From an uncultured Nitrospirales bacterium (GTDB lineage Bacteria > Nitrospirota > Nitrospiria > Nitrospirales > NS-4): DNA of 60,768 bases. The translations under genes were made by a program, and so were the position numbers. The stretch is from NCBI GenBank assembly GCA_964610095.1, contig CAZSUT010000004.1, positions 1-60,768 on the forward strand, written 5' to 3'. Every line of letters begins with the position of its first letter. Position 1 is the first letter of the stretch. This document shows positions 41,825 through 57,551 of the stretch, one piece after another. The notes under the pieces are model-generated. The model was not told the origin of the DNA. It was given only the letters and a program-made list of their open reading frames with translations, and ran no database searches.

Positions 41825-43900
41825 ATGGATAGGCATTCGGTATCTCCTTGTGAGACTCTGGCGGAGCAGTACCAAGCCCTGCTAGAGGTCGCAGAGGCGA
41901 TTTCCGTCCACCGCGATCTCTCCAGTCTGATTCATGACCTCGCCCAGCGACTCCATCGGGTGGTCAATTTCGAGTACATGCGGTTGATTCTGCACGATCC
42001 CGAACGAAACGTCATGCGCCTCCACGTCCTCGAAGCGCCAAACGAGCGTTATGATGTGTCGGGCTGTCAGGAACTACCCGTGGACGAGTCTCCGGGTGGA
42101 TGGGTCTGGCAAAAGCAGGAACCTTTAGTGGTCTCGGACGTCGAAAGAGAAACCCGCTTCCCACGCGTAACTGAGTTGATGCGCCAGCAGGGTGTGAAAT
42201 CGTATTGCGTGGTTCCTCTCACCACCGCGCAGCGGCGGTTGGGTGCGCTCGGGTTCGGGAGCTTACAGAAAGCCTCATATGATGGATCTGATCTGGAGTT
42301 CCTGCAACAGGTGGCCAAGGAGGTCGCAGTCGCTGTGGACAACGCGTTGAACTATGAAAGCGCCCAGTCCGCGCAGCGACAACTGGCTCATGAACGCGAC
42401 CGCCTGCGGCTGCTGCTCGAAGTGAACAACGCGGTGGTCTCTCGTCTGGATCTCCGGGACGTGTTTGCGGCTACAACGGCATCCCTCCGTCGGGTGATAC
42501 CGCATGCGCTTGCCAGCCTATACCTCTACGATCCTGATAATGAGGTCGTTCGTCGGCATGCCCTGGATAGTCCGAGTGGCAAAGGCCTACTCAAGGAAGG
42601 CTTCGTGGGTCCTATCGACAGCACGCCTGCGGGCCCCGCCATCAGGACGGGTAAGCCGGCGCTGTTCGAAGAGGACGATCTCAAACGTTTACAATCCGAC
42701 GTTGCTCAACTCCTGCTCGAGGAGGGCGTGAAGTCCGGCTGCTGCGTGCCGCTCAAATCACATAATCGGTTGTTGGGGACGCTAAACATCGCAAGCCTTC
42801 ATCCGAGCGCGTTTAGCCAGGACGATGTTGACTTGCTGATCCAAGTTGCCAACCAGATCGCGATTGCGGTCGAGAACGCGCTGGCCTATCAGCAGATCAC
42901 CGAGTTGAAAGACAAACTGACCAAGGAGAAGCTCTACCTCGAAGACGAAATCCGCACCGAATACAACTTCGAGGAGATCATCGGGGAGGGCGCGGCGCTG
43001 AAGCGAATCCTCAAGCAAGTGGAGACCGTCGCGCCGACCGACTCTGCCGTGTTGATCCTGGGCGAGACCGGCACCGGCAAGGAGCTCATCGCGCGGGCGA
43101 TCCACAATCTAAGTAAGCGTCGCGAGCGGACCTTCGTCAAGATGAATTGCGCGGCGATCCCGACGGGACTGCTCGAAAGCGAGCTGTTCGGCCATGAACG
43201 GGGCGCCTTCACCGGCGCCATTGCCCAGAAGGTCGGCCGATTTGAACTCGCCCACCAGGGCACGCTGTTCCTCGACGAAGTCGGCGATGTCCCTCTTGAG
43301 CTGCAATCCAAGCTCCTTCGTGTTCTGCAGGAGCAGGAATTCGAGCGGTTGGGGAGCAACCGCACGATTCGTGTGGACGTCCGCCTGGTGGCGGCCACGA
43401 ACCGGGATCTCGCCCAGATGGTTGCCGACAAGCAATTCCGCAGCGATCTTTATTACCGCCTCAACGTGTTTCCCATCACGGCTCCTCCATTGCGGGAACG
43501 CCCGGAAGACATTCCATTGCTCGTCCGCTACTTCGCGCAAAAATACGCCCGCCGCATGAACAAGCGGATCGAAACGATTCCGGCCGAGGCGATGACGGCC
43601 CTTGCGAAGAACCACTGGCCCGGCAATATCCGGGAGCTCGAAAATCTGATCGAGCGATCCGTGATTCTGTCCCAAGGGCTCGACCTGCACGTTCCTCTTG
43701 GAGAGTTGAAAACGCCGGCCACGACGGCTCCCAACAGAGTCGCGACCTTGGAAGCGGCCGAGCGCAAGCACATTCTGCGCGTCCTCCGCGAGACCAATTG
43801 GGTAATCGGAGGTTCTTCCGGCGCCGCTACCCGCCTCGGCATGAAACGCACGACGTTGCAATCGAAGATTAGGAAGCTCGGCATCAGTCGCTCGCGGTAG
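41825..43900 (+). CDS. sigma54-dependent activator, GAF-GAF-AAA+-Fis HTH (FhlA-like)
   Basis: Two GAF domains, [34 protein letters not shown]-terminal [21 protein letters not shown]. Confidence 0.95.
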
Positions 43901-43924
43901 CGCCAATCTTTCGGCACCGTGCCG
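43901..43924 (+). promoter_or_regulatory. Degenerate/truncated copy of the enhancer palindrome directly after the activator stop
   Basis: CGCCAATCTTTCGGCA (13/16 match to TGCCGATATTTCGGCA), then CCG TGCCG, after which similarity ends. Confidence 0.5.
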
Positions 43925-44026
43925 TTCTTCCACTCCTGCAGCACCGTGAGCTTCTGCTCGGCAGGCCACCGACGCTTCGACCACGATCGTTCTGGACAGG
44001 TTTCTCCGCACAGGGAGGTCGGCACT

Positions 44027-45139
44027 ATGAGTCATAAGGCTGTTATTATGTTCTCCTTGTTGCCTCTGTTGTTCGTCTCAAACCAGATCTACGCCGACTC
44101 GATCCATTTAGAGCAGATTAAGCTTCCCCCTGGTTTTACAATCGCGGTCTACACGGACAAAGTTCCCAATGCCCGAGGAATGACTTTGGGGAAGAACGGC
44201 ACGGTGTTTGTCGGCTCTCGGGATAAAGGCGACGTCTACGCCGTGGTGGACACTGACGGCGATCAGCGCGCTGATAAAGTCTTTACGATCGCCAGCGGCC
44301 TTCAGATGCCTGTCGGCGTGGCCTATCGGAATGGTTCCTTGTATGTCTCCGCGGTCGATCGCATCCTGCGCTTCGATGAGATCGAACAGCGACTGGCGAA
44401 TCCGCCGAAGCCAGTGATCGTGACGGACCGCTTTCCGCACGAGACGCATCATGGCTGGAAATTCATTGCCTTCGGTCCTGACGGCAAGCTCTATGTGCCG
44501 GTCGGGGCTCCGTGCAACATCTGTGAACCGGATCCCGACCGCTATGCTTTGATCTCGCGTATGAATCCTGATGGCAGCGGATACGAAATCGTGGCGCGCG
44601 GGGTCCGGAACTCTGTCGGCTTCGATTGGGATCCCACGAGCCATGATTTGTGGTTCACGGACAATGGTCGTGATTGGCTCGGAGATGATCAACCGCCGGA
44701 TGAGCTGAATCATGCGCCGAAGCCGGGGATGCATTTTGGCTATCCGTATTGCCATGGCGGGACGATTCCCGATCCGGAGTACGGCAGCAAGCACCCCTGC
44801 AGTGAATTCACGCCACCGACTGTTAATCTCGGTCCCCACGTCGCCTCACTAGGCATGCGCTTTTACACAGGAAAGATGTTCCCTCCGAAATACGAAAACC
44901 AAACCTTCATCGCAGAACATGGCTCGTGGAATCGGAGCAAGAAGATAGGCTATCGCATCACATCAGTGTTACGAGATGAGCAAGGACACCTCCGCTATTC
45001 AGTGTTCGCAGAAGGATGGCTTCAGGGCCAGGAGGCATGGGGGCGCCCCGTTGATGTTCTCGTCATGCCAGACGGTGCCCTGTTGATCTCAGACGATTTG
45101 GCAGGTGTGATTTATCGGATCAGCTATAAAAAACAATAG
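44027..45139 (+). CDS. PQQ-dependent sugar dehydrogenase (glucose/sorbosone dehydrogenase family), exported
   Basis: Signal peptide; LPPGF, HHGWKFIAFGPDGKLY, GVRNSVG, AEHGSWNR, GRPVDV. Confidence 0.88.
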   Translation: MSHKAVIMFSLLPLLFVSNQIYADSIHLEQIKLPPGFTIAVYTDKVPNARGMTLGKNGTVFVGSRDKGDVYAVVDTDGDQRADKVFTIASGLQMPVGVAYRNGSLYVSAVDRILRFDEIEQRLANPPKPVIVTDRFPHETHHGWKFIAFGPDGKLYVPVGAPCNICEPDPDRYALISRMNPDGSGYEIVARGVRNSVGFDWDPTSHDLWFTDNGRDWLGDDQPPDELNHAPKPGMHFGYPYCHGGTIPDPEYGSKHPCSEFTPPTVNLGPHVASLGMRFYTGKMFPPKYENQTFIAEHGSWNRSKKIGYRITSVLRDEQGHLRYSVFAEGWLQGQEAWGRPVDVLVMPDGALLISDDLAGVIYRISYKKQ

Positions 45140-56373: not shown

Positions 56374-56432
56374 CAGGTCAGGAGCCGCCCAAGTAAGCCT
56401 TCGGGAGTTCAGGTGATTGGGAAGGAGTAACA

Positions 56433-57131
56433 ATGAGCGCATCACAGGAAACTCAGTCGGTGGCCTTTTTGTTTGATCTGGATGGTACCCTGGTAGATAG
56501 CGTGTACCAGCATGTCCTGGCCTGGCGAGAAGCGATGCACGCGGCAGGCATTGAGCTAGCGGTGTGGCGGATTCATCGGCAGATCGGCATGAGCGGCGGT
56601 CTCATGTTAAATGCGTTGCTTCGGGAAACCGGCCAACCTGTCTCACAGGAAAAGGCCGAGCGCATCCAGCGCGTGCACGCGGACGCGTATGAACGGCAAG
56701 TGGAATCGCTTCGGCTTCTGCCAGGCGCGCAAGAGCTCTTGGATAAGTTGTCGGCGCATCACGTGCCGTATGCGATCGCCACCAGTGGACGCTTGCAGAG
56801 CGCCCAACACACGCTTAAACTGCTCAAGCTTCACGCTGGCGCCCCAGTCGTGACTCGCGATCAGGTGCGCCGCGCCAAACCGGACCCCGATGTGTTTTTA
56901 GCTGCCGCCCAACAGCTCAACGTCCCAATCACCCGCTGCGTCGTCGTCGGCGACAGCGTCTGGGACATGCTCGCCGCGCGACGGGCCTTGGCGCTAGGAG
57001 TCGGCCTGCTTTCCGGCGGATACGGGCAAGACGAGCTCGAACGGGCGGGTGCCTACCGGGTGTACGACGATCCTGCCGACTTGTTGCGGCATCTCGATGA
57101 GGTCGGCGTGCGGTTCGAATCGACAACATAA
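56433..57131 (+). CDS. HAD family hydrolase
   Basis: DLDGTL, KPDPD, GDSVWD. Confidence 0.9.
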   Translation: MSASQETQSVAFLFDLDGTLVDSVYQHVLAWREAMHAAGIELAVWRIHRQIGMSGGLMLNALLRETGQPVSQEKAERIQRVHADAYERQVESLRLLPGAQELLDKLSAHHVPYAIATSGRLQSAQHTLKLLKLHAGAPVVTRDQVRRAKPDPDVFLAAAQQLNVPITRCVVVGDSVWDMLAARRALALGVGLLSGGYGQDELERAGAYRVYDDPADLLRHLDEVGVRFESTT

Positions 57132-57164
57132 ATTTACCCTTTAAGATGATTAAGGAGAGGAGTC

Positions 57165-57551
57165 ATGGCGACCACACTCAAGATTCCCAGCGCGGCGAAA
57201 GCCAAGAAATACTTCCAGGACAAAATGGCTTTCACAACAGGCCCCGTCGAACTCGAACGCATGGTTCAACAGGGCCAGCCGGTCCACATTGTGGACGTAC
57301 GGGCTGCGGAGGATTACAACGAAGGCCACATCCCCGGCGCCGTCAACCTGCCGAAGGATCAGTGGGCGGATGCCAAGACACTGAAGGCCCGATTGCAGAA
57401 GGGCAGGATCAACGTTGTGTACTGCTATTCGCACATCTGTCATCTGGCGGCGACGGGGGCCATCGAGTTTGCGAGCAAGGGCTACCCGGTGATGGAGTTG
57501 GAGGGTGGGTGGCGCTGGTGGAAGGACAACGGCTTTGACATCGAGAAGTAA
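57165..57551 (+). CDS. Rhodanese-like domain protein
   Basis: IVDVR..EDYNEGHIPGA, VYCYSHIC, LEGG..WW. Confidence 0.88.
   Translation: MATTLKIPSAAKAKKYFQDKMAFTTGPVELERMVQQGQPVHIVDVRAAEDYNEGHIPGAVNLPKDQWADAKTLKARLQKGRINVVYCYSHICHLAATGAIEFASKGYPVMELEGGWRWWKDNGFDIEK

Follow-up and report, generated by a model that had tools for sequence, protein, structure and literature searches.

Candidate sigma-54 enhancer modules of an FhlA-like GAF activator family ahead of export and defence operons in an uncultured Nitrospirales bacterium

The activator gene and two copies of a module

Here, we examine a stretch of 60,768 nucleotides from an uncultured Nitrospirales bacterium (contig CAZSUT010000004.1; hereafter the window) that encodes an FhlA-like sigma-54 activator and, downstream of it, two copies of a module composed of paired palindromes, an IHF-like site and a putative -24/-12 promoter, each at the head of an operon. 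The activator gene (41825..43900, + strand) encodes a protein of 691 aa in which Pfam recognises two GAF domains, an AAA+ domain with a GAFTGA loop and an HTH_8 domain. The AAA+ domain is PF00158 (Sigma54_activat, E = 2.6e-74), with the Walker A motif GETGTGKE and the GAFTGA loop both visible in the alignment, and a C-terminal Fis-type helix-turn-helix (HTH; PF02954) occupies residues 641-685. By these sequence features the protein is a bacterial enhancer-binding protein, for which enhancer binding and activation are predicted. Thirty-five bp upstream lies a gene for a protein that joins Fer4_13 to a metallo-beta-lactamase fold (Fer4-MBL; 40902..41789, + strand; Pfam), a synteny that is kept in relatives at loci L001-L007.

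A repeat search between 41 and 58 kb returned one outstanding direct repeat, 47248-47413 against 51382-51547 (166 nt, 81% identity). The original prediction, made from the letters of the sequence, had proposed a repeated module of identical geometry, and this was borne out. Each copy carries two 16-bp palindromes of the form TGCCGA-N4-TCGGC, 18 bp apart. In the enhancer of module 1 (47251..47284, no strand assigned) these are TGCCGATATCTCGGCA and TGCCGATATTTCGGCG, with centres 18 bp apart and conserved in relatives, and in the enhancer of module 2 (51385..51418, no strand assigned) they are TGCCGATATTTCGGCA and TGCCGATATGTCGGCG, found as a pattern match. A third half-site, TCGGCA, follows at +42 (47293..47298 and 51427..51432, both + strand), and an IHF-like TTTCAA-N4-TTA at +103 (TTTCAACGACTTA, 47354..47366, and TTTCAACAAGTTA, 51488..51500, both + strand) agrees in both copies with 12 of the 13 positions of WATCAANNNNTTR. 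Perfect matches to TGCCGATATNTCGGCR number only four in the whole window (47251, 47269, 51385 and 51403); with up to three mismatches there are 12, against 3.5 +/- 1.9 in shuffled sequences, and none of 100 shuffles reached 12. One palindrome-like site, TGCAGATGTTTCGGCA (two mismatches, 13832-13847), lies within an open reading frame (ORF) with no nearby promoter, looks like a chance occurrence and was set aside.

At +144, each module carries a predicted sigma-54 promoter: TGGAATATGAATTGCC in module 1 (47395..47410, + strand; TGGAAT-N5-TTGCC), with a predicted start near 47421, and GGGAATGTGAATTGCC in module 2 (51529..51544, + strand; GGGAAT-N5-TTGCC), with a predicted start near 51555. Compared with the TGGCAC-N5-TTGCW context, both have the GG-N10-GC spacing of a -24/-12 element. 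Because a comparable score arises by chance about once per 5 kb in the window, the argument for these promoters is carried by position and conservation; GGGAATGTGAATTGCC was found in identical form at +144 on many metagenome contigs. No sigma-70-like promoter was found in either module. Elsewhere in the window, a good -24/-12 match (AGGCACCGGTTTTGCT, 40513-40528, - strand) lies in intergenic DNA beside the Fer4-MBL/activator pair, about 80 nt upstream of a divergent gene for 413 aa (39191-40432) and with no palindrome pair near.

The stop codon of the activator gene (43898-43900) abuts a relic of the enhancer (43901..43935, + strand), made up of the degenerate palindrome CGCCAATCTTTCGGCA and the left half of a second palindrome; this degenerate start of a module had also been recognised originally. 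Similar relics occur at L134 (3979-4006) and L008 (8118). Ahead of module 2 we found the relic of a second activator (51289..51384, + strand), which the original prediction had missed, consisting of the last 29 HTH codons and a TGA stop that touches palindrome 1. By tblastn, 51289-51375 matches residues 661-689 of the intact activator at 76% identity; nothing else was matched, and 50349-51239 was therefore rejected as the body of a decayed activator. The gene before module 1 was likewise rejected as a second activator, since Pfam identifies it as a TonB receptor. Among the copies in the window, then, the junction between stop codon and palindrome is intact but relic-headed at 51384/51385 and degenerate at 43900/43901, and at module 1 the end of the TonB-receptor gene stands in its place.

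Recurrence of the module and its activator family

The activator shares with E. coli FhlA the GAF-GAF-AAA+-HTH architecture, nearly the same length (691 against 692 aa) and 47% identity over 591 aligned columns, with only about 22% identity in the sensor half. It scores 619.7 bits with the NCBIfam FhlA equivalog model NF011958, for which the cut-off is 830, and is thus not assigned as an FhlA orthologue; its AAA+ region also strongly matches NifA and NorR models. The likeness extends to DNA recognition, with a recognition helix that reads KRTTLQSK here and KRTTLLSR in FhlA (the longer FhlA stretch is GAAQRLGLKRTTLLSRMKRLGI). The E. coli hycA-hypA intergenic region, a target of FhlA in hyc-hyp, contains TTTCGACA and TGTCGAC repeats that are one base off TTTCGGCA, the half-site found here. 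This is compatible with a common origin of protein and operator, followed by a slight change of specificity.

The HTH helix is nearly invariant in the module-adjacent activators of every phylum sampled, and also across the Nitrospira-type paralogues of 691, 819 (PAS-GAF), 860 and about 1040 aa. Since helix and site are both invariant, the HTH co-varies with nothing. The paralogues, which had escaped the original prediction, carry one to four GAF domains or a PAS domain; because they share the HTH, the intact 2-GAF protein of the window need not be the sole or the main regulator of its modules.

Soil metagenomes and metagenome-assembled genomes (MAGs) named Nitrospirae or Nitrospiraceae provide the closest homologues of the activator, at about 90% identity. 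Their contigs share an order of Fer4-MBL, activator, a variable inserted block, the palindrome pair and then genes for a 64-aa protein, a zinc-ribbon protein, a STAS protein and a cupin, and all have an intact pair and +144 promoter. Pair and promoter thus recur in relatives reached through the activator protein (L001-L007 and L010) and, independently, in L132-L135, which were reached through the STAS protein. L010 encodes a 59%-identical 4-GAF paralogue with a pair 124 nt after its stop, a weaker TGG-N8-ATGC at +145 and then a small gene and a gene for a DedA-rhodanese fusion, and has a further pair with TGGAAC-N5-TTGC at +143 ahead of an RND operon. L132 and L134, two further Nitrospira-like contigs, represent a compact form; L132 has a single-GAF activator, and in L134 a block of genes is inserted between a 2-GAF activator and the module. 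In both, the +144 module is followed in one operon by genes for the 64-aa, zinc-ribbon, STAS and cupin proteins, a short-chain dehydrogenase (SDR) or a DUF5069 protein, DedA-rhodanese, a membrane-fusion protein (MFP), an RND pump and an outer-membrane factor (OMF). No intact module was present in the DNA examined at L008 and L009, which were reached via paralogues of 863 and 1038 aa; L008 has its stop-codon relic and a candidate palindrome at the edge. As a separate observation, MarR, (DoxX), pirin and nitroreductase genes precede the activator in L132 (5238-7716) and L134 (1-1854). This combination is typical of quinone and electrophile responses and offers a lead for the inducing signal.

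The original prediction had proposed scanning relatives for the palindrome pair with a -24/-12 element downstream, and such scans were productive. One genome per GTDB species was searched for the exact pattern GCCGA-N4-TCGGC-N4-GCCGA-N4-TCGGC, which returned at least 119 loci, and a module promoter was counted where a -24/-12 score of at least 16.5 was reached within +90 to +200. Among the genome-scan matches listed, 57 modules reach this score, and they belong to Nitrospirota (including Manganitrophus), Acidobacteriota (Blastocatellia, Vicinamibacterales, Terriglobia, Holophagaceae and Paludibaculum), Binatia, Verrucomicrobiia, Gemmataceae and a few MAGs labelled Gamma- or Betaproteobacteria. 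Matches in Actinobacteria and Kiritimatiellia, many of them tandem coding repeats, were used only as negative controls. The actinobacterial ones are useful in this respect because the phylum, to our knowledge, lacks sigma-54: the 30 among the matches listed are mostly tandem coding repeats, and none reaches the promoter score. A narrower pattern run against metagenome contigs yielded at least 120 loci, and nearly all of the matches listed have the promoter at a fixed offset.

Pooled with the protein-anchored loci, the pattern scans gave at least 143 distinct module sequences. In 105 of the 143 listed the promoter lies at +139 to +146, with smaller classes near 97, 108, 114-119 and 126-134. These distances fit no single period, so we rejected a strict 10.5-bp helical phasing between enhancer and promoter and claim only discrete classes. 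The third half-site, TCGGCA at +42 or +43, is present in 89/143 listed modules and in 1/143 for a control window. The C-terminus of a homologous multi-GAF activator is encoded no more than 200 nt upstream in 61 of the 143, and in 37 of these 61 its stop codon abuts palindrome 1.

The junction of activator stop codon and enhancer, at 43901-44026 in the window, seems to be a hot spot for insertion, since different relatives have different gene blocks there, sometimes with a palindrome relic left behind. At the junction in L002 (12080-12129) the block comprises Na/H exchanger, DUF5996, zf-UBP and HAD genes, with no recognisable palindrome relic; at L134 and L008 it comprises ECF sigma, YCII, DUF899 and glyoxalase genes, with the relic kept. 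Ten of the at least 143 modules, namely copy 2 of the window and those at L148, L150, L253, L072, L126, L206, L209, L230 and L235, are headed only by an activator relic of 20-39 codons. Such recurrent stubs could have arisen by recombination between the conserved HTH-coding segments of paralogues, or that DNA may itself be functionally needed.

The operons behind the modules

The block between the activator and module 1 encodes a secreted beta-propeller of GSDH/DUF7133-like type (44027..45139) and the TonB-dependent receptor with plug and barrel (45298..47202) that immediately precedes the module (both + strand; Pfam and NCBIfam), and L001 has the same gene pair ahead of its module. Operon 1, also on the + strand, opens with a gene for a 64-aa protein of no family (47455..47649), which is the first operon 1 gene in Nitrospira relatives as well. 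It continues with a 93-aa zinc-ribbon protein with two CxxC pairs (47663..47944), which showed no similarity to HycA (E = 2.5), and a 95-aa STAS-fold protein (47938..48225), whose gene is conserved more widely than any other behind the module. There follow a Cupin_2 protein (Pfam; longest ORF 48168..48623, true start probably near 48225), with orthologues in L002, L132 and L134, and a 104-aa protein of no family (48624..48938) that is related to the product of an 87-aa gene of L134. The SDR gene (48958..49750) is broken over three frames, in pieces at 48958-49050, 49056-49313 and 49355-49747, and is either a pseudogene or an assembly error. Next comes a DUF5069 protein (49816..50280; Pfam), one of which is also encoded in the L134 operon. 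Between operon 1 and the relic activator lies a gene for a hypothetical protein of 296 aa (50349..51239, + strand) without Pfam, NCBIfam or PDB match; it is absent from the other module operons examined and is not a recurrent member of the regulon.

Operon 2, again on the + strand, begins with an MlaF-like ABC ATPase (51579..52358; start TTG 51579 or ATG 51591) and a DedA/VTT membrane domain fused to rhodanese (52362..53309), a fusion that is recurrent behind modules. Next are pirin (53362..54225), a Dps/ferritin-like protein (54272..54877), a P-II-like protein resembling the PG0541 transporter-associated family (54973..55290; 38.6 bits, below the cut-off of 45), a Zn-dependent Ahr-like NADPH aldehyde reductase (Zn-ADH; 55330..56373), a HAD-IA hydrolase (56433..57131) and a single-domain rhodanese (57165..57551). 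The original gene assignments were mostly right by Pfam and NCBIfam, except that the SDR had not been seen as frameshifted and operon 2 had been ended at 57551, short of the efflux-pump genes. The DNA beyond this point encodes the MFP, or periplasmic adaptor, of an RND pump (57679..58875; Pfam), 86% identical to that of L132, and the first ~630 residues of an RND inner-membrane pump (58872..60768; 88.6% identity to the L132 RND by tblastn), which starts at the MFP stop. The pump ORF runs off the end of the window and was for this reason hidden from the ORF listing. Probably these two genes are the tail of operon 2, which would make it an efflux operon. In support of this, relatives at L154, L170 and L205 have a matching gene order of ABC, VTT-rhodanese, pirin, Dps, P-II-like, Zn-ADH, (rhodanese), MFP and RND. 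Of a tripartite RND set the window thus holds the MFP and part of the pump, and the OMF would lie beyond its end; MFP, RND and OMF occur together in L002, L132 and L134.

To survey the cargo across taxa, ORFs downstream of modules were clustered, and the counts that follow are of genome-scan loci among the matches listed. The commonest products are the STAS-like protein of about 95 aa (26 loci), MFP (24) and RND pumps (15, many of them cut by the end of the locus). SDR and DedA-rhodanese follow with nine each, the zinc-ribbon protein with six and its membrane-anchored kind with four, ABC/MacB-type transporters with five, TolC-like OMF and Zn-ADH with four each and EmrB-type MFS transporters with two. 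Dps is limited to the operon-2 type. In many loci outside Nitrospira, STAS is the first gene and pump genes come directly after it, and the pumps that follow STAS outside the window are MFP/RND, MacB-type ABC or EmrAB, not Mla components. On contigs of acidobacterial type, a module and STAS are followed by an ECF sigma factor (L183, 3013-4250), which hints at a cascade from sigma-54 to ECF in some lineages, and a module is followed by a STAS-OMF ORF, EmrA and EmrB (L166). On the same contig as L002, which carries a 90%-identical activator, a second module lies 7.8 kb downstream (L146, 8241-12110) with TGGAATAGGAATTGCC at +144; it heads genes for three small secreted proteins and cytochrome bd (CydAB), and the predicted regulon of close relatives therefore includes a terminal oxidase.

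The STAS protein of the window has a confident predicted structure (AF2 pLDDT 91.4), and the model superposes on SpoIIAA and RsbV with TM-scores of 0.72-0.77 (Foldseek E = 3e-6), as expected of a SpoIIAA-like alpha/beta fold. At the phosphorylation site, DSSG aligns to D(K/E)EG, such that the phosphorylatable serine is missing, and no HATPase-type anti-sigma gene and no gene for a partner kinase or phosphatase was found in any operon examined. MlaB was also matched structurally, and one source calls a homologue MlaB-like. The protein scores 21.5 bits with Pfam STAS, against a gathering threshold of 22.6, and its family, which has no dedicated Pfam or NCBIfam model, comprises 1,088 clusters at 50% identity (E <= 1e-10) with conserved Cys-Trp and Gly-Cys motifs.

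A proposed sigma-54 export programme and its alternatives

The recurrence of palindromes and -24/-12 element in one geometry, next to activators of a single type, supports the view that they form, with the candidate bend site, one functional unit belonging to the FhlA-like GAF-GAF activator family. We consider it probable, from comparison of sequences, that each module is a complete enhancer-dependent sigma-54 promoter of this family and that its output is a programme of export and defence. On the paradigm of bacterial enhancer-binding proteins, activator dimers would occupy the two 16-bp palindromes and the extra TCGGCA half-site, and a ligand on the GAF domains would free the AAA+ domain to form a hexamer. 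A bend at the IHF-like site, which lies some 35 bp ahead of the -24 element, would bring the AAA+ ring to the closed complex of RNA polymerase and sigma-54 at GG-N10-GC. As in other members of the family, ATP hydrolysis would then open the promoter, with transcription from near 47421 and 51555.

The ancestral layout was probably activator gene, stop codon, palindromes, promoter and target operon. The window would then represent this layout broken up, with a relic enhancer at the activator stop, the propeller/TonB-receptor block before module 1 and a 29-codon relic ahead of module 2. Because the paralogues share the DNA-reading helix, any one promoter is probably served by several sensors, and the operon of the lost second activator could still be driven by surviving ones. 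To judge from the relic activator and the broken SDR gene, decay seems to be still under way, although assembly errors could account for the SDR.

What the programme responds to can be judged from its output. Pumps, aldehyde and ketone reductases, pirin, cupin, rhodaneses and Dps, with cytochrome bd in a relative, lead us to lean towards defence against a toxic small molecule or a redox or electrophile insult. More speculatively, the modules may define a phylum-spanning sigma-54 regulon in which paralogous activators with different sensor arrays (one to four GAF domains, or PAS-GAF) read one operator and many chemical inputs feed a common export and detoxification output. The non-phosphorylatable STAS protein directly ahead of the pumps would then represent a novel type of partner that either modulates the activator by feedback, as HycA, PspA and NifL do theirs, or regulates the pumps from the cytoplasm. 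We put this forward as a tentative extension, less likely to be right than wrong.

Several observations weigh against a complete sigma-54 module with an export and defence output. The scans fix the GCCGA/TCGGC cores, so that conservation of the cores in scan-derived loci is by construction, and only the ~15 loci reached through proteins were found independently of it. No more than about one module in three has a recognisable IHF-like site at the fixed position: a match to WATCAANNNNTTR with up to two mismatches lies 36-41 nt upstream of TGG in ~17/48, and column conservation there is weak. Distances of 3.3 and 7.5 kb separate the intact activator from the intact modules, the site next to the activator is degenerate, the -24 element of copy 2 reads GGG and not TGG, and neither rpoN nor ihf is present in the window. 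The physiological signal, moreover, is a guess from gene content.

The original prediction held that an FhlA-like activator runs a general-stress programme, equivalent to that of SigB or RpoS, through sigma-54. Its activator-operator half stands up well, given the recurrent geometry, the activators adjacent to 61 of the 143 modules listed and the near-invariant HTH, but the proposed role in general stress was not sustained and we judge it unlikely. Dps, SDR, Zn-ADH and pirin are indeed present, the best-conserved cargo protein folds like the anti-sigma antagonists RsbV and SpoIIAA, and on some acidobacterial-type contigs an ECF sigma factor gene sits right behind the STAS gene. However, what recurs across the 143 listed modules is STAS with efflux systems (MFP/RND/OMF, MacB-type or EmrAB), together with reductases, DedA-rhodanese and pirin; Dps is confined to one operon type. 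The STAS protein comes without a kinase or phosphatase partner and reads (K/E)E at the phospho-serine positions, no chaperone, catalase or osmoprotection genes are found in the cargo, and the promoters are of the -24/-12 type. A true FhlA-type system, with GAF domains that sense formate and a regulon that serves formate-linked physiology, might be expected from the overall identity to FhlA, the equal length and architecture and the related half-site, and formate is a substrate of Nitrospira. This we regard as improbable to a somewhat greater degree, since the equivalog score falls well short of its cut-off (619.7 against 830 bits), the sensor half is poorly conserved and the paralogues with one to four GAF domains or PAS imply diverse ligands. 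Nor was any hydrogenase, formate dehydrogenase or HycA-like gene found in the window or in the relatives' loci with genes listed, in agreement with the original remark that hydrogenase genes are lacking.

Two further alternatives take the palindromes away from the activator. They might be terminators, RNA hairpins or a REP-like selfish repeat that ends the upstream gene: each can fold as a 6-bp hairpin (-7.8 kcal/mol), the region of the pair has z = -3.8 to -4.7, the second palindrome of copy 1 was marked as terminator-like, and the palindromes come directly after stop codons. Against this, the half-site sequence is conserved beyond what pairing requires, and the palindrome changes in the protein-anchored loci L132, L135 and L010 are uncompensated, as would be expected of a protein-binding site and not of an RNA hairpin. 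The register of 18 bp is fixed, the third half-site is unpaired, the distance to the -24/-12 element is fixed, and the element occurs only beside this activator family or in genomes that have it. A role as hairpins in place of activator sites is thus very improbable; a side role as weak terminators is possible. Alternatively, another regulator, such as a MarR or TetR repressor of efflux operons, could bind the palindromes, with the activator using different sites. Repressor control is common for efflux operons, and in L132 and L134 the activator has a MarR gene upstream, but no such gene is consistently adjacent. Only the activator gene is a constant neighbour, with a stop codon that touches the site in several phyla, and a repressor would find no sigma-70 promoter there to block, so we give this explanation hardly any credence.

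The export programme proposed here, under an FhlA-like family, has parallels in several known systems. FhlA itself, with hyc-hyp and fdhF upstream sites, has the same GAF-GAF/AAA+/HTH_8 plan, half-sites that differ by one base and sites ~100 bp or more upstream of a -24/-12 promoter. It differs in that the targets here are efflux and detoxification operons, there is no HycA, the enhancer abuts the stop codon of the activator's own gene and expansion of the family has produced 1- to 4-GAF and PAS-GAF paralogues. In NifA and NorR, a GAF domain that responds to a small molecule or redox state gates the AAA+ domain, the upstream sites are in tandem (TGT-N10-ACA for NifA, GT-N7-AC for NorR) and IHF helps looping at some promoters; operator, cargo and GAF number are different here. 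As in BaeSR-mdtABCD, CpxAR and ZraSR, a dedicated sensor would turn on export and protective proteins, and ZraR is also a sigma-54 activator, with homologous AAA+ and DNA-binding regions (1ojl). Those systems signal by two-component phosphorylation, whereas here cytoplasmic GAF domains are fused to the activator and no kinase was seen. The 95-aa cargo protein shares the STAS fold of SpoIIAA/RsbV and of MlaB, and an MlaF-like ATPase heads operon 2; unlike SpoIIAA and RsbV, it has no phosphorylatable serine, partner kinase or anti-sigma factor.

In the literature, of which our coverage was incomplete, we found no description of this operator, regulon, activator family or association of STAS with pumps, which is weak evidence for novelty. 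The enhancer, IHF and sigma-54 mechanism is already textbook, so the gain is what seems to be a new instance and not a new principle, one that is found widely and has a defined cis-code. Very little is known of how transcription is wired in Nitrospira (nitrite oxidisers and comammox), Manganitrophus and soil Acidobacteriota, which are of ecological importance, difficult to culture and nearly without genetics. With an operator of fixed geometry, regulon members can be listed directly in any genome or MAG, and the system can be rebuilt in a heterologous host to ask what compounds are sensed by the GAF domains. These possibilities are relevant to the tolerance of nitrifiers to inhibitors, metals and plant or microbial toxins in soil and wastewater. 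Lastly, a tRNA-Arg gene (CCT; 1291-1367, - strand) was the sole RNA gene detected in the window.

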